NCBI GenBank assembly: GCA_965208435.1
Contig: OZ242337.1
Coordinates: 1,516,180-1,580,179, forward strand
Direction of reading: 5' to 3'
DNA length: 64,000 bases
From: Candidatus Aldehydirespiratoraceae bacterium
Lineage (GTDB): Bacteria > Actinomycetota > Acidimicrobiia > Acidimicrobiales > Aldehydirespiratoraceae
The notes under the pieces are model-generated. The model worked only from the letters and a program-made list of their open reading frames with translations, had not been told where the DNA came from and did not search any database. Numbering within the stretch: the stretch's first letter is position 1; each line of letters begins with the position of its first letter. Shown here piece by piece: positions 3,898 through 52,088 of this stretch. Position numbers and translations under genes: made by a program.

Positions 3898-4056
3898 ACC
3901 ACAACTCTAGGAGACTGCTGGCAATTGCGTTGCCGGCTGAGCCTGTCAGAGGTGTTAGGTGTGATAAAGGGCGTGCCGGAGTCGTTGTTCCGGGGCTGGC
4001 CGCTTTGTCCACACCCAAGGCATCGACAGCTTGAGCATTGCGACAACGCTAAGCGG

Positions 4057-4689
4057 TTAATGACCTTGTTCATTAGGTTCTTCGTTATGGTCCTCTGACT
4101 TCTCCAATTCACTGTCTAACTTGCGACTCAAGAAGCGAAATATCGAGTATATTAGCCCACTATAATGGTTCTCGGAGGACAGTCTTGACCCCAATAGAGT
4201 AGATCTAAGGATTTCGGCTTTTGATATTGCCTTTTGAGCGCGCTGGTCAAGTATATTTGCTTTTTTAGATGCTCGAAGCGGATCGTCAACGATGTTACGG
4301 AATCGAACACTATATACTCTATATTGATACTCATAGTAGTATAATTCTGCCCTCATACCAAACAACCAGATTTTCCCTAATCGTTTCCCTTGAGGAGTTT
4401 CATCATGATCTGGACTCACAGCTCGCAATCGGGACCACGCGGCGGCTTTGAGTGGGAATACCAAGATACATAAAATTAACGGAACAAACCCAGTTGTTCT
4501 AGTAGTAAGGCTCGTTATGCCGGCAATTTGAACAAGTAGTATATCAGCCAGTAAAGTTGCGAATGACAAACCAAACAATACGCTTCCTAAAAAAAATGAA
4601 ACTAGTGCGATTCGATCATGAGCAAAACTGAGACGTGAGGACTCCGATTGGTAATGGTCGCTCTCAAAAACAGGGGGACGCAACACCAT
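4057..4689 (-). CDS. Hypothetical 2-TM membrane protein in an AT-rich islet
   Basis: 210 aa ORF. Two hydrophobic helices (IALVSFFLGSVLFGLSFATLL; FVPLILCILVFPL) followed by a Tyr/charged helical tail. Local GC is about 40% versus about 65% in the flanks. Confidence 0.5.
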   Translation of the reverse strand: MVLRPPVFESDHYQSESSRLSFAHDRIALVSFFLGSVLFGLSFATLLADILLVQIAGITSLTTRTTGFVPLILCILVFPLKAAAWSRLRAVSPDHDETPQGKRLGKIWLFGMRAELYYYEYQYRVYSVRFRNIVDDPLRASKKANILDQRAQKAISKAEILRSTLLGSRLSSENHYSGLIYSIFRFLSRKLDSELEKSEDHNEEPNEQGH

Positions 4690-4901
4690 TAGCTACACCC
4701 CGATTTGACCCAACTAAAGCAATTTCCTGAACTACCTGAACCACCAGTTGGTTGAGTGAAACGTCGGACGACGGTTCTTGCCACAGTAACGCATTGACTT
4801 CGTGCACACGTTTGGAGTGTGCCAAAAATACGGGCAATTGGTTTTGCCACGATTCTCTTCACCTTCCTGCGAAGAGGTCTTGCATAAGGGAACAGAACCA
4901 T
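4689..4901 (-). CDS. Possible small basic Cys-containing protein coupled to the 2-TM gene (weak)
   Basis: Stop/start overlap TAATG at 4687-4691 with the downstream gene. 70 aa counted from the internal ATG. No recognisable motif. Confidence 0.25.
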   Translation of the reverse strand: MVLFPYARPLRRKVKRIVAKPIARIFGTLQTCARSQCVTVARTVVRRFTQPTGGSGSSGNCFSWVKSGCS

Positions 4902-5073
4902 AGTGCTGTGATGCGTGGTCCGCAACTCGGGTGATGGAAAGCTTTGGAAGTGTTTGGTACTGATTGGATGGTGCTGGTGGCGGGCGCGGCTGCGCCGACG
5001 CCGCCGCGACGTGATTGGCATCGGGCCAAGGTGGTGTTGATGGCTTCAGAGGGGTCGTCGCCGGTGATCAGGG

Positions 5074-7362
5074 CTAGGCGTCTGAGGCGATGGCGGTCAG
5101 GACGGCGATCTCGATCTCGCCGAGATAGTTTTTGTCGAGGATCTTCTGGTCGTTGGGTCCACGCACATAGAACGAGTCGACGACGTCGTCGCCCAGGGTC
5201 TGCACCTTCGCCGAGAAGATGTCGAGGTCCAAGTCGTGCAGGGCTCTGGTGATGCGATACAGCAGGCCGATCGAGTCCGGCCCTCGGACCTCGATGACCG
5301 TCGCATCCGAAGACAACTCGTTGTCGATGATCACTTCAGGCTCCGATGGACGAGCAGTGGTGATCCGCTGGAAACGGTAGGTACGGGCACGCTGCAACAG
5401 TCGGGCTCGCACGGCTAGACCTCCGGCGAGCGACAGGCGAATATCTTCCAGCACCCGCTCGGGACGTTCATCAAGGCCCACACCCCCGCCGACGCGCAGC
5501 ACCTCCAACGACATCGAATCCTCCGTGTGGAGCCGTGCCCCCAGAATCTCGACGCCGTGCAGCGCCAACGCTCCGGCGACACGGGAGAACACGCCCGGAC
5601 GGTCTGCGGTGATCACTGTCAACTCGTGGCCGTCGAGACGCACAAGCTCCTCACCTCGTGCCAGCAGCTCGGAATGCTCCTCAGTCGGGAACTGCGAGGT
5701 GAGCATCGTCCCGCCGGTTCGCAGGAAATGCGCGGTCCGGTTCACCAGCCTCTTCACCAGCTCCGCTTTCCAGCCGCCCCAGGCGGCCTTGCTGGTCGCA
5801 ATCGAATCAGCCTCGGTGAGCGCCCCAAGCAACTCGAGCGTGCCCACAGAGTCGATCTGTTCAGCAACGAACCGGATCGTCTCCTCCGCATCGAGGTCAC
5901 GCCGCGACGCCACATCGGGCAACAACAGGTGATGCCGCACCAACACGCCCAACGTCTCGATGTCGGCCGGCGGGTAACCCATGCGGGCAGCGATGCTCCG
6001 GGCCAGCCCGACCCCGACCTCGCTGTGGTCTCCCGGGTAGCCCTTGCCGATGTCGTGCAGCAGCCCACCGAGCACCAACAGGTCGGGACGCTCCACACGA
6101 TCAGCGATCGCAGCCGCCTCGGCCGCGGCCTCCAGCAGATGCCGATCGACGGTGAAACGGTGATACACGTTGCGTTGCGGGCGGCTCCGATTGGGTGTCC
6201 ACTCCGGGAACAGGCGGGATATCAGGTCAACCTGGTCGAGGGCTTCGATGACCCGGATCGCCTCGTAGCCCAGAAGCAGCAGGTCGACGAAGGTCTCGCG
6301 TGCCTCATCGGGCCATTGATCGGGCATCGGCGGGGTTTCAACGGCAAGCCTGTCGAGCACGTCACGCTCGATGAATGCGTCTTCGGTGGCGGCGATGTAG
6401 GCGACCCGCAGCGGCATCACCGGGTCCTCCGAGACCGCAGCGTCCTCGCCGAAACGCAGCGTCTCATCGACGATCTCGATGCCGTGGCCGAACTCGCGTA
6501 CCCTTGGCCGCCAGCGGCGACGGGTCGAGCGGACATGGATGCGGTGCATCACCGCGTCCATGGTCCAGGCGACGGATCGGGCCGCTGAGGCCACCGCAGC
6601 CATCAACTCGTCGGCGTTTGCGTAGCCGAGCGCCGCGGAAACCTCATCCTGGTCCTGCAGCAGCAGCCGGTTGCCGGACTGCCCGCTGAGCCTGTGGAGC
6701 TCGATGCGCGCCGACAGCAGGATCCGGTGCGGTTCGATCAGCTCGCTGCGTTCGGTCGCCTCCAACAAACCCTGGTCGGCCTGATCGATCCAGTGCAGGG
6801 AGTCGAGGTCGCGCAGCCCTCCCCTCGCCAGCTTCAGGTCGGGTTCGAGCAGGAACGCCACCTCACCGGCTGCGTCGTGGCGTTCACGTACCGACTCGAC
6901 GAGCACTCCGAGCATCTTGTCGGCGTTGTCACGCCACAGATCGTGCGCTTTCTTCTCCAGTTCGTCCACCAGACGCGCCTCACCGCCGATGAGGCGGATG
7001 TCGAGCAGCGAAGTGGCCGTGTCGAGGTCTTCGGCAGCCAGGTCGATCGCTTCGTCGATGGTCCTGACCGCGTGGCCGAGCTTGATCCCGCTGTCCCAGA
7101 TCGGGTACCAGATCCGCTCGGCGACTTCAGCGACATGGCCCGAGTCGTTGTGCACCAGCAGCAGGTCGAGGTCGCTTCCGATGCTCAGCGAACCCCGCCC
7201 GTAGCCTCCCACCGCCGCCAACGCCACGCCCCGGACTTCCTCCACGCCGTCCACGACCGACTCCAGCCATGCGTCTATCTCCGCTGTGTAGGCGCGGGAC
7301 AGGTCGGTGCCCACCAGGCTCCGATCGGCGAGAAGCGCTGAGGTTGCGGGGACTGCTTTCAT
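5074..7362 (-). CDS. glnD: [Protein-PII] uridylyltransferase/uridylyl-removing enzyme
   Basis: 762 aa. Nucleotidyltransferase N-terminus (GGYGRG..S.GSDLDLL), HD domain (LLHDIGKG) and two C-terminal ACT-like repeats. Confidence 0.9.
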   Translation of the reverse strand: MKAVPATSALLADRSLVGTDLSRAYTAEIDAWLESVVDGVEEVRGVALAAVGGYGRGSLSIGSDLDLLLVHNDSGHVAEVAERIWYPIWDSGIKLGHAVRTIDEAIDLAAEDLDTATSLLDIRLIGGEARLVDELEKKAHDLWRDNADKMLGVLVESVRERHDAAGEVAFLLEPDLKLARGGLRDLDSLHWIDQADQGLLEATERSELIEPHRILLSARIELHRLSGQSGNRLLLQDQDEVSAALGYANADELMAAVASAARSVAWTMDAVMHRIHVRSTRRRWRPRVREFGHGIEIVDETLRFGEDAAVSEDPVMPLRVAYIAATEDAFIERDVLDRLAVETPPMPDQWPDEARETFVDLLLLGYEAIRVIEALDQVDLISRLFPEWTPNRSRPQRNVYHRFTVDRHLLEAAAEAAAIADRVERPDLLVLGGLLHDIGKGYPGDHSEVGVGLARSIAARMGYPPADIETLGVLVRHHLLLPDVASRRDLDAEETIRFVAEQIDSVGTLELLGALTEADSIATSKAAWGGWKAELVKRLVNRTAHFLRTGGTMLTSQFPTEEHSELLARGEELVRLDGHELTVITADRPGVFSRVAGALALHGVEILGARLHTEDSMSLEVLRVGGGVGLDERPERVLEDIRLSLAGGLAVRARLLQRARTYRFQRITTARPSEPEVIIDNELSSDATVIEVRGPDSIGLLYRITRALHDLDLDIFSAKVQTLGDDVVDSFYVRGPNDQKILDKNYLGEIEIAVLTAIASDA

Positions 7363-49486: not shown

Positions 49487-49632
49487 GACTAGTCGAAACG
49501 GAACTAGACGAGTAGTTCCAAGGGGTGGTGGGGTCCACCATGTCGGGTCCCGCTGCGGGCGGGGGAACGGGCAGAATCACCGCACCGTCGGCGGGTCGTC
49601 GTTGTCTGTGACGGTGACTGTTGTGGTGGTTG

Positions 49633-51903
49633 CTACTTCTGTTGTTGTGTGTCGTGGGCTTGTTTGGCTTGGATCTCGGCGACTACCTGGTCCCATACAG
49701 GGCTGCTGTATTTCTGGGTGTTCTGCTTCGCTTCAGCCAAGCTGAGCGCGCCGCCTGTGACGTCGGCGGGATCAATCACGCCGAGCGCGGCGAGCGCCCG
49801 CTGCCAGCGGTTGACGTGAGCGAAGCCGTGATGAGTTTGTGACGCCAAATACTGCACCGCCGCGACAACCTGCGGATCCGCCACATACAGCACCGGCTGG
49901 TCCTGCTGGGGCTGGTCCTGCTGGGGCTGGTCCTGCTGGGGCTGGTCCTGCTGACCCTGTTGGTCTTGCTGGGGCTGCTGGTCCTGCTGGTGCTGTTGTT
50001 GTTGGTCGTGGGTTTGTTTGGTTTGGATCTCGGTGACTATTTGGTGCCATACAGGGCTGCTGTATTTCTGGGTGTTCTGTTTCGCTTCAGCCAAGCTGAG
50101 CGCGCCGCCTGTGACGTCGGCGGGGTCTAATGCGCCGAGCGCGGCGAGCGCCCGCTGCCAGCGGTTGACGTGGGCGAAGCCGTGATGAGTTTGTGACGCC
50201 AAATACTGCACCGCCGCGACAACCTGCGGATCCGCCACATACAGCACCGGCTGGTCCTGCTGGGGCTGGTCCTGCTGACCCTGTTGGTCTTGCTGGGGCT
50301 GGTCCTGCTGGGGCTGCTGGTCCTGCTGGGGCTGGTCCTGCTGGGGCTGGAGGGTAGTGAAGTCGGCCATGTCGTCGTCCTGGACTGCGACGGCCATGTC
50401 GAACCTGGCTTCGCGCTGGGCTCTGGGGTAAACCCCCGGGAGTTTGGAGAGCCAGCCGTTGGTGTCCCAGTTGTCGCTGAAGCTGTGACGAACAAACCGG
50501 GTGTCGGAGCTCATGTCAGCATCCTGGTCAGCAGTGACGGTGACCGTGCGCGGCTCGTCGTAATCATCCACCGACGTCCACGACACCACCGACGGCTCAA
50601 AGCTCAACCCGGCGCCCGTCGGAGTGATCGTCAACGGAGAACCCGGCACAGGAACATTGAAGTTCCGTACCGTGTAAGAAACGGTGCCGCCCTCAACCAC
50701 ACCCAGACACTTCACCAAACGGCAGTTGACGTCTTTGAGAGGGTTCGGTGTGAACAACGGATCCAAAGCACCCTGACCGCGCTGCACCACCACCTTCACC
50801 GAAGGAAACACCACCGACGGATCAGTCGAAGACAACACCAAATCATAAACCTGGTCAGGCCGCCTGCCCGGCTGATTGCGCGCACCCGTATGCGCAGCCG
50901 TCACCTCCACTATCCGGTAACCCTTCTCCGAACCCGGCCCGTAACCCGCCCAATCCTGAGCATCGAACGAGAAACCGATCGACGCGGCCGGTGCCAACCG
51001 CCGGATCCCGTAGTCAACACCCCGAGTCCCCCCAGCATTAGACCCCCACGCCTCGAACTGCGTCTGCACCCGCCGACCACCCGCCATATGCAAAAACCGC
51101 GGATGGTTCACCTTGAAACGCGACGGATCAGACGACGCCGCCGTCACCGGCACCGACCCAGTCACCTCCTGAGCCAGATCCAAACGCACAGACACCGTCT
51201 CACCCTCACGCACAAACACCACCTCAGGCGCAGACACCAAACTAGACAACGATACGCCGTTCACACCCACCTTGAGGGACTCCCTAAAGCTCCCCCAGGC
51301 GTTGCTGTTCCACAAGCTCAACAGAGTCCTGTCGGCAATGCTCCAACCAGCCGCCCCGCCGGCATCCTCGCCGTTGCTTGAAGAGAGCTGCAGATTGTTG
51401 TGCGACCACCTTATCCTGACACTCATGTCGAACACCACAAAATATGTGGTGTCCGCCGCAAGTTCGATACCGCCCTGCGGCGCCGCGAACCTCAACGCCC
51501 GATGACCAGAGAACGTGCCGGTGAACGACGGCGTCAAAGTACCCAGCACCGCACCCGGACTCCCACCCGCGTCAGCATTCACCGTAACCGACAGCTTCGA
51601 AGCCCAAGAAGCATGCTGCAACTTGTAAAAGTACGCATCAACACTGCTCAACCTGTAACCAGACGGATCGCTGCCCGTCGAGAACGCCTGAGCATAATCA
51701 TGGGCAAAAAGGCTCGCAGTGCCACTGTTCGCCTGGCCGAGATTGCTCACCAACACCGGCTCAGACGGTGCCTGCGCCCCAACCGGCGACGGCGACACAG
51801 CCAACAACGCGGCCAACACACCAACCGTCAAAACAACCCCAACAAGGCTCCTACGCCCCCCCCCCCCCTGCCTTCGAACCACCCGTAAAACTGGCATCAC
51901 CAC
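49633..51903 (-). CDS. Secreted repeat protein of unknown function (signal peptide, beta-rich N-terminus, duplicated C-terminal module with QQDQP tracts)
   Basis: MVMPVLRVVRRQGGGGRRSLVGVVLTVGVLAALLAVSPSPVGAQA signal-like N-terminus. The C-terminal module of about 118 aa is present twice. Confidence 0.6.
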   Translation of the reverse strand: MVMPVLRVVRRQGGGGRRSLVGVVLTVGVLAALLAVSPSPVGAQAPSEPVLVSNLGQANSGTASLFAHDYAQAFSTGSDPSGYRLSSVDAYFYKLQHASWASKLSVTVNADAGGSPGAVLGTLTPSFTGTFSGHRALRFAAPQGGIELAADTTYFVVFDMSVRIRWSHNNLQLSSSNGEDAGGAAGWSIADRTLLSLWNSNAWGSFRESLKVGVNGVSLSSLVSAPEVVFVREGETVSVRLDLAQEVTGSVPVTAASSDPSRFKVNHPRFLHMAGGRRVQTQFEAWGSNAGGTRGVDYGIRRLAPAASIGFSFDAQDWAGYGPGSEKGYRIVEVTAAHTGARNQPGRRPDQVYDLVLSSTDPSVVFPSVKVVVQRGQGALDPLFTPNPLKDVNCRLVKCLGVVEGGTVSYTVRNFNVPVPGSPLTITPTGAGLSFEPSVVSWTSVDDYDEPRTVTVTADQDADMSSDTRFVRHSFSDNWDTNGWLSKLPGVYPRAQREARFDMAVAVQDDDMADFTTLQPQQDQPQQDQQPQQDQPQQDQQGQQDQPQQDQPVLYVADPQVVAAVQYLASQTHHGFAHVNRWQRALAALGALDPADVTGGALSLAEAKQNTQKYSSPVWHQIVTEIQTKQTHDQQQQHQQDQQPQQDQQGQQDQPQQDQPQQDQPQQDQPVLYVADPQVVAAVQYLASQTHHGFAHVNRWQRALAALGVIDPADVTGGALSLAEAKQNTQKYSSPVWDQVVAEIQAKQAHDTQQQK
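49640..50347. repeat. 2 x 354 bp tandem duplication containing 15-nt-type (ctggtcctgctgggg) microrepeats
   Basis: The anchors gtgacgtcggcggg (49757 and 50111) and acagggctgctgtatttctgggtgttctg (49697 and 50051) are each exactly 354 bp apart. Confidence 0.9.
51856..51868. repeat. Homopolymer C13 (G13 on the coding strand) inside codons 12-16 of the secreted protein gene
   Basis: Counted directly: 5 + 8 consecutive C. Encodes Q-GGGG in RRQGGGGRRS. Confidence 0.95.
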
Positions 51904-51954
51904 TCACTTTCATCCCTTCGCTAAAACCAGCAAGCCGAAAACGGCAACCCGGCC

Positions 51955-51990
51955 ATACAATGTATACCTACGTTGACTATACAATGTATA
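51955..51990. promoter_or_regulatory. Two copies of the palindromic atacaatgtata, 24 bp apart, upstream of the secreted protein gene
   Basis: 51955-51966 and 51979-51990. AT-rich, 52-87 nt upstream of ATG 51903. Confidence 0.35.
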
Positions 51991-52088
51991 TCCAACATGG
52001 CAACCCACAACCACCGACCCCTTGGAACAAATCGTCTAGCAGGGTGCTGAACCAGCCCGAAACAGACCCGGACCAGCCGAAACAGGCG

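Follow-up and report, generated by a model that had tools for sequence, protein, structure and literature searches.

A conserved, length-variable homopolymer at the 5' end of choice-of-anchor R protein genes in Acidimicrobiia: a candidate phase-variation switch

The locus and its G13 tract

The 64,000-nucleotide (nt) stretch of DNA analysed here, which we call the window (positions 1,516,180 to 1,580,179 of contig OZ242337.1 in assembly GCA_965208435.1, from a Candidatus Aldehydirespiratoraceae bacterium), carries on its minus strand an open reading frame (ORF) of 756 amino acids (aa) at 49633..51903, encoding a predicted secreted protein with a choice-of-anchor R domain. Close to the 5' end of this ORF is a homopolymeric tract of 13 G residues (51856..51868, minus strand; C13 on the plus strand), hereafter G13, which we propose to be a site of slipped-strand mispairing. 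By inspection, the minus strand around the tract reads ...GGTTCGAAGGCA-GGGGGGGGGGGGG-CGTAGGAGCC..., and the tract supplies the last base of Gln 12 and the whole of Gly 13 to Gly 16 (CAG GGG GGG GGG GGG) in the frame that is open at this tract length. Re-reading of the letters gives exactly the 13 G's, and the Q-G-G-G-G at codons 12-16 of the 756-aa ORF, that had been reported in a preliminary description of this DNA.

The tract stands out sharply from its surroundings. A homopolymer census of the window (62.6% G+C) identified it as the sole G or C run longer than 6 nt; the remainder comprises 18 runs of 6 nt and none of 7-12 nt. Under a model of independent and identically distributed bases, 0.027 G/C runs of 13 nt or more are expected per window, and about 26 runs of 7 nt or more, of which one was observed. 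Homopolymers are thus depleted or avoided in this genome generally, as the preliminary description had held for long G/C runs even in GC-rich genomes, and G13 is a strong outlier. All four glycine codons in the tract are GGG, a codon that has a 23% share of the glycine codons in the long ORFs of the window; at this usage the probability of four successive GGG codons is about 0.26%.

Sequence inspection suggests that residues 1-45 (51769..51903, minus strand) form a signal peptide. The N-terminus, VVMPVLRVVRRQGGGGRRSLVGVVLTVGVLAALLAVSPSPVGAQA, has the layout typical of the Sec type, with an n-region that contains Arg 7, Arg 10, Arg 11, the glycine run and Arg 17-Arg 18, an h-region that extends from Ser 19 to Val 36 as an 18-residue hydrophobic core, and a c-region, SPSPVGAQA, that ends in an A-x-A site (cleavage motif A-Q-A). 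The h- and c-regions are conserved in 15 paralogs. G13 is therefore preceded by the start codons and followed by the hydrophobic core, and it sits inside the n-region of the signal peptide. Residues 53-216 (51256..51747, minus strand) match the choice-of-anchor R domain model NF041539 of NCBIfam at 81 bits, the cutoff being 30 (E = 8.7e-23; hidden Markov model search), and the homologs bear the same name at NCBI. The signal peptide of Sec type and the choice-of-anchor R domain make the product look exported, and it may reside at the cell surface.

Two sets of start codons precede the tract, in different frames. The 756-aa frame can begin at GTG 51903, GTG 51900 or ATG 51897 (codons 1-3), about 10-16 nt from a Shine-Dalgarno (SD) sequence; the methionine codons previously assigned to positions 1 and 3 are thus an ATG at codon 3 and a GTG at codon 1, with codon 2 also GTG. 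A further GTG (51905..51907, minus strand) begins a leader, VSGDASFTGGSKA-Gly(n), which enters the frame of the signal peptide at G12 and G15. This GTG 51907 is homologous to a start, '(A/G)TG AGT GGT', that is conserved in the related loci L003, L009, L010-L012, L019 and L020. The only SD-like motif, GAAGGG (51914..51919, minus strand; motif match and inspection), would serve both starts, and its spacing is better for GTG 51907 (about 6-7 nt) than for GTG 51903 (about 10-11 nt).

We varied the tract length in silico and read from both starts. At G11, translation would yield 25 aa from GTG 51907 and 16 aa from GTG 51903; at G12, 757 and 24 aa; at G13, 18 and 756 aa; at G14, 26 and 17 aa; and at G15, 758 and 25 aa. 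Since a single SD motif is shared by two starts in different frames, both G12 and G13 are predicted to give a full-length precursor, and the gene probably has two productive phases, possibly of unequal strength, together with one silent phase (G11, G14, G17). The expectation that a change of one G in either direction would truncate the protein consequently applies to each start taken singly. With both starts considered it applies to the gain, as G14 (like G11) leaves only 16-26 aa, and probably fails for the loss, as G12 would restore 757 aa through GTG 51907. Judged by leader homology, the G13 found in the assembly might even represent an OFF state relative to the ancestral start. The leaders of different subgroups of the family differ in a 5' alignment by insertions or deletions of 18 and 21 nt, both multiples of 3, which weakly supports translation of the leader in the GTG 51907 frame.

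Past the tract, the earliest TTG and GTG codons in frame in this gene are located inside the hydrophobic core, at least 16 nt from a post-tract AGGAG. They have no properly spaced SD motif, and a signal peptide begun there would lose its charged n-region; bypass of the tract by a downstream start is therefore unlikely here. The preliminary description had stated that the tract cannot be skipped in this way, which stands for the window gene and does not extend to one subfamily of its relatives (subfamily B, below), where a start codon lies just past the tract.

One homopolymer site across the family

A protein search retrieved 25 relatives; the close ones among them belong to a small number of complete genomes, each with many paralogs. 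According to their NCBI names, the organisms that carry the close relatives are sponge-associated Acidimicrobiia (Ca. Poriferisodalis, Ca. Poriferisocius and relatives), and one genome of 4.44 Mb contains at least eight copies of the family, each with its own tract. We compared the DNA of 17 loci from species-representative genomes, which are complete metagenome-assembled genomes (MAGs); 15 of these include the N-terminus, and four more were reached through their proteins. For P0001, P0003 and P0004 (3.81-Mb genome) and P0021 (4.44-Mb genome) the comparison was restricted to protein N-termini. L016 and L017 were set aside: they encode giant Calx-like proteins that have only the middle domain in common with the family and no tract in the stretch examined.

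We observed a homopolymer at the homologous site in every other locus with a readable 5' end (18 of 18, from at least six independent assemblies). Sixteen of these are poly-G tracts of G7 to G30, and two, in distant members, are C12 and C13. In all 15 loci that include the N-terminus, poly-G is found 60-96 nt upstream of the ..AGAQ cleavage site, with lengths of 7, 7 (+6, interrupted), 9, 10, 11, 11, 12, 13, 13, 13, 14, 14, 18, 19 and 23; L020 has G30 at the site. Throughout 107 kb of family loci, the G/C runs of 9 nt or more are without exception these 5' tracts, and runs of 8 nt are absent. The 3' flank is conserved as well, as Gn-CTTAGGAGCCTTGTAGCGGT..., reading Gly(n)-LRSLVAVAV in the alignment of the 5' regions. 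L007 contains two G9 tracts, at 2278-2286 and 2429-2437, about 150 nt apart, and its leader segment (...TCGAAGGTA-G9-CT...) is duplicated.

The two poly-C members bear on what is conserved. In L021 (38% identity), C12 (1635-1646) encodes PPPP at the equivalent position and is followed by the TCGGTGCGT motif that also follows the G-tract in subfamily B, while in L025, likewise distant, C13 (958-970) lies 30 nt upstream of the signal peptide. Given these C12 and C13 tracts, the conserved feature is a long homopolymer as such rather than any G-specific chemistry. The change from G to C with the flanks in place possibly reflects a local inversion or independent gains. Given the poly-C members, and as some tracts are short (G9-G11), we rejected a G-quadruplex or an SD role as a general explanation.

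Traces of the tract are also visible in existing annotation. Glycine runs occur at the same place in annotated N-termini (EGGGGGGGV in P0003, and GRGGGGL and GRGGGA), and the annotated starts of P0002, P0005, P0006, P0008, P0009, P0011, P0014, P0015 and P0021 lie inside or after the signal peptide, which is the expected output of a gene caller when the upstream part is out of frame. Because of the tract, the family is systematically mis-annotated and mis-assembled: gene callers truncate or mis-start its genes, and short-read assemblies break at the site.

Such behaviour raises the question of whether the tracts are an artefact or a neutral accident, that is, a sequencing or assembly error, a mark of decaying pseudogenes or a poly-glycine spacer maintained at the protein level. 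Homopolymers are the main error class in long-read assemblies; in L019, a short-read metagenome scaffold, the tract site coincides with a 10-N scaffold gap (about 705-714) at which the scaffold breaks; and two loci look decayed, L009 with G7 and an early stop and L004 with an interrupted tract and no upstream start. Against this, 19 loci, taken from at least seven assemblies produced by different projects, have a tract at one and the same position, which excludes an artefact as their source, and 14 of 15 downstream ORFs are intact. Selection for poly-glycine was rejected, as only GGG codons are used, tract lengths do not come in multiples of 3 and poly-C, encoding proline, replaces poly-G in distant members. 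We therefore consider an artefactual or neutral origin extremely improbable.

Tract length, reading frame and the proposed switch

Length polymorphism was compared between paralogs and related species only. Five subgroups have flanks of about 90% identity or more, and in each of them the differences in tract length are not multiples of 3: 13, 14 and 19 in L008, L014 and L018; 11 and 13 in L002 and L006; 18 and 7 in L003 and L009; 11, 10, 12 and 30 in L010, L011, L012 and L020; and 14 and 9 in L005 and L007. We then scored the frame of each locus relative to its best upstream SD motif and start codon, which was feasible for 13 paralogs. Five of them are in frame (L005 with G14, L009 with G7, L012 with G12, L013 with G23 and L014 with G14) and eight are out of frame (L002, L003, L006, L008, L010, L011, L015 and L018). 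The clearest case is a GGAGG-N6-ATG start, reading 'MSVVRTFR', that is in frame at G14 (L014) and out of frame at G13 (L008) and G19 (L018).

The ORF after the tract continues uninterrupted for 880-1140 aa in 14 of 15 loci; the exception is L009, whose decayed G7 copy with its early stop looks like a true pseudogene. Genes that are otherwise intact and have their frame broken only at the homopolymer bear what we consider the signature of a contingency locus, not of random decay. From these observations, we hypothesize that G13, situated in the translated 5' end of the gene, is a contingency element of the hypermutable simple-sequence type and acts as an ON/OFF switch of a secreted or surface protein, and we give this explanation a probability of roughly three in four. 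G13 exceeds the length of about 8 nt at which slippage is expected and is over-represented against its background, it lies inside a predicted translated region, tract length is polymorphic between related loci and the product is predicted to be secreted, all of which are properties that define contingency loci. The suggestion of a slippage-prone phase-variation switch, first made as a candidate for the window gene by itself, is now backed by the homopolymer in 18 of 18 loci, by the length differences, by the mixed frames and by the intact ORFs.

The switch would operate as follows. Slipped-strand mispairing during replication would add or remove G's, and each gain or loss would bring the signal peptide and the downstream protein into register, or out of it, with the ribosome-binding site and start codon that precede the tract, so that single cells would turn the exported protein ON or OFF in a heritable and reversible manner. 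For the window gene, GTG 51907 would be productive at G12 and G15, and the starts from GTG 51903 to ATG 51897 at G13. In a multi-copy family with one tract per copy, a variable N-terminal head and a conserved C-terminal module, such switching would produce changing combinations of proteins across the population. We infer slippage within populations, its reversibility, the surface location of the product and a selective agent, which may be host recognition or phagocytosis, or phage.

The excess of out-of-frame copies with intact ORFs could also be read in terms of RNA-level recoding, in which stuttering of the polymerase or ribosomal frameshifting on GGG would provide a constant low level of in-frame product and no heritable switch. 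Long homopolymers can cause transcriptional slippage, and five of the eight out-of-frame copies call for the same +1 correction. Transcriptional slippage is, however, best documented on A/T runs, and the other three copies require -1/+2 instead of +1. More directly, tract lengths differ between near-identical copies, which indicates that the DNA itself is unstable. We regard recoding as the sole explanation as very doubtful; slippage at the RNA level could nevertheless coexist with slippage in the DNA.

Another explanation places the effect of the tract at translation initiation or in the 5' untranslated region (UTR): the true start would lie downstream, and tract length would tune expression with no switch of frame. 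The G-run might serve as an SD-like element or as a modulator, or it might control a short upstream ORF that is coupled to the main one. Two observations favour such a role in part of the family, and they count against the frameshift model as a description of every member. In subfamily B (L009-L013 and L020) an in-frame ATG or GTG follows the tract by 8-9 nt and begins a complete, ideal signal peptide (MRAGGRVPRALLAA...). In L025 an SD-preceded upstream ORF terminates in a GTGA stop-start overlap, and the annotated GTG start, with a full n-region, is found 30 nt past C13. The tract of subfamily B and L025 may therefore lie in the 5' UTR or act via translational coupling. In subfamily A, which includes the window gene, no start codon intervenes between tract and hydrophobic core, and the poly-C tracts of L021 and L025 cannot be SD elements. 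Conserved SD and ATG/GTG signals are present 20-45 nt upstream of the tract, and the leader insertions or deletions in multiples of 3 noted above suggest a translated leader. The leader RNA, for its part, has no match in Rfam and no unusual structure, its folding energy being no different from that of shuffled sequences (z = +1.0). Initiation-level control is thus an unlikely explanation for the family.

Further points weigh against the frame-switch hypothesis. The length variation described above is seen in comparisons of paralogs and of related species, and the gene is missing from the three syntenic relatives that are closest. Homopolymer lengths in long-read MAGs can be off by one, which makes the ON/OFF calls, including that of G13, provisional, although the out-of-frame copies deviate in both directions (+1 in five, -1/+2 in three). 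The start codons of the window gene are themselves predictions, and two candidate starts compete.

At the level of the family, we tentatively propose a combinatorial surface-variation system in sponge-symbiont Acidimicrobiia, with at least eight copies, each gated by its own long G or C homopolymer, some perhaps with three states through dual start codons and most of them silent at any one time; we would put this broader proposal a little short of an even chance.

Known systems, protein architecture and chromosomal setting

The closest counterpart that we found is the pilus switch of bifidobacteria. In Bifidobacterium breve UCC2003 and other bifidobacteria, the first sortase-dependent pilin gene has, close to its 5' end, a tract of G11-G12 that undergoes replication slippage; the tract separates the Sec signal and the initiation signals from the rest of the pilin, and its length sets the ON/OFF state (PMC9187656). 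Slippage was demonstrated experimentally, the ON length is selected in vivo, the tract is conserved across bifidobacteria, and the annotated downstream starts lack both an SD motif and a signal peptide (PMC9187656). The family described here resembles this system in belonging to the same phylum (Actinomycetota) and in having an intragenic 5' G-tract, at a conserved position, in a surface-protein gene. It differs in several respects: a choice-of-anchor R family of at least eight copies takes the place of two pilus operons per genome, with their LPXTG pilins and sortase, the tract of the window gene lies within the n-region of the signal peptide and not after the signal, tracts in the family reach G23-G30 and some are poly-C, and we infer the slippage that was shown experimentally in bifidobacteria. 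The window gene does not belong to the sortase-dependent pilus system. No LPXTG-type motif or other known anchor was found in the 756-aa protein, the gene is flanked by rlmB and an alcohol dehydrogenase gene, and no sortase gene was seen near it.

The placement of the tract has a parallel in pilC of Neisseria, which reportedly carries a poly-G run in its signal-peptide codons. The phasome of Neisseria comprises many poly-G/C contingency genes that switch independently (PMC5953494, PMC5084427). Poly-G in signal-peptide codons, ON/OFF switching by frameshift (predicted for our family) and many loci per genome are common to both cases; the Neisseria examples, however, are demonstrated switches of unrelated proteins in Gram-negative human pathogens, whereas we are dealing with uncultivated symbionts of marine sponges. 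Campylobacter jejuni has hypervariable poly-G/C loci of G8-G13 over unrelated surface-modification genes (PMC8355987), and in the Mycobacterium tuberculosis complex homopolymer phase variation involves tracts of about 7-9 nt, mostly in metabolic and regulatory genes (PMC10334774). These organisms, of which Mycobacterium is a high-GC actinobacterium, use G/C homopolymers as reversible frameshift switches, as we predict here; what distinguishes the present case is a single paralogous family with long tracts at one conserved position. The two predicted productive phases of the window gene, possibly unequal, and its one silent phase recall lic1 and lic2 of Haemophilus influenzae, which are said to have two start codons in different frames before CAAT repeats. 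Unlike those genes, with their tetranucleotide repeats and cytoplasmic lipopolysaccharide-modification enzymes, the window gene has a homopolymer and encodes a predicted secreted protein.

The mechanism is most likely of the classical simple-sequence contingency type, and as such already known. New are the lineage that harbours it (uncultivated Acidimicrobiia living as sponge symbionts) and the protein family concerned (choice-of-anchor R); new too are the scale, with at least eight tract-bearing paralogs in one genome and tracts of up to G23-G30, and the interchange of G and C at a conserved site. Among host-adapted pathogens and some gut commensals, phase variation through homopolymers is a classic strategy. 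The literature that we searched made no mention of Ca. Poriferisodalis or Ca. Poriferisocius and no link between phase variation and sponge symbionts. If our hypothesis is correct, stochastic surface switching matters also in an ancient animal-microbe symbiosis. Under the broader combinatorial proposal, the symbionts could continually vary their display to the phagocytic or innate-immune recognition of the sponge, or to phages, and no simple-repeat 'phasome' would have been described before this one from a symbiont of a marine invertebrate. The family in any case offers concrete candidate molecules for symbiont-host or symbiont-phage recognition.

The architecture of the protein agrees with a head that is variable and exposed, carried on a conserved module for attachment. 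Identity among paralogs averages 60% in the head, which contains the choice-of-anchor R domain and is the most variable part, and reaches 90% in the nearly invariant C-terminal module. The middle domain and the C-terminal module have no Pfam match, and Pfam added nothing to NF041539 elsewhere in the protein. The C-terminal half contains in-frame repeats (49639..50350, minus strand), in which a 354-nt module occurs twice with 91% identity and encodes a conserved DPQVVAAVQYLASQTHHGFAHVNRW... domain, flanked by 15-nt tandem repeats that encode QQDQP (49895-49953 and 50249-50350; 3.9 and 6.4 copies). As the arrays and the duplicated module are in frame, linker length or module number could also be variable, and the copy number of the Q-rich linker differs widely among paralogs. 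An AlphaFold model of residues 41-481 is all-beta and of low confidence (predicted local distance difference test score, pLDDT, of 60); a Foldseek search of the PDB with this model gave only generic beta-sandwich matches with template-modelling (TM) scores of 0.25 or less, from which we assigned no fold.

Gene, promoter and tract together occupy a lineage-specific insertion of about 2.55 kb (49511..52062, minus strand), with rlmB on one side and a zinc-type alcohol dehydrogenase gene on the other. The three closest syntenic relatives, with RlmB identities of 94%, 90% and 88% (aa), have ispD-ispF-rlmB followed directly by the alcohol dehydrogenase gene, with flanks of about 81-92% nucleotide identity. 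A search by way of the neighbouring RlmB found no positional ortholog of the window gene in the available data. Searches of metagenome contigs likewise returned 0 matches, both with the window gene's own flanks separated by a variable gap and with a family-wide pattern built on the conserved 3' flank. As gene, promoter and tract were inserted together between two genes that are adjacent in the relatives, the family appears to reach new chromosomal sites as a self-contained cassette.

A sigma-70-like promoter, TTGCCA-16-TATAGT, is predicted at 51976..52003 (minus strand) with 10 of 12 matches, one of two matches in the region where 0.6 are expected. About 108 nt, with the SD motif and the start codons among them, separate the predicted -10 box from the tract downstream of it. 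If the prediction holds, the tract is thus transcribed and does not form part of a promoter spacer; a promoter-spacer switch of the kind found in Bordetella fim, Neisseria opc and porA, and Treponema tpr was excluded on this ground. The TATAGT box is present in L003 and L009 as well. A palindrome, TATACATTGTAT(A), occurs in two exact copies, 24 nt apart from start to start (51955-51966 and 51979-51990), the 12-mer being ATACAATGTATA on the plus strand in both. The pair looks like an operator, one copy covering the predicted -10 box and the other lying just downstream. L003 has a different palindrome, ATATGT-N4-ACATAT, in the same place beside the same TATAGT box. In the predicted leader, between the promoter and the starts, a terminator-like hairpin with a U-rich tail (GGCCGGGTTGCCGTTTTCGGCT TGCTGGTTTT; 51933-51954, minus strand) may be either an attenuator or a match by chance.

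Besides G13, the window has just one homopolymer of 8 nt or more, an A8 on the plus strand at 4589-4596. It lies within positions 4001-6000, the part of the window with the lowest G+C content (55% against 63%), and about 100 nt into the 5' part of a 210-aa ORF on the minus strand (4057-4689).

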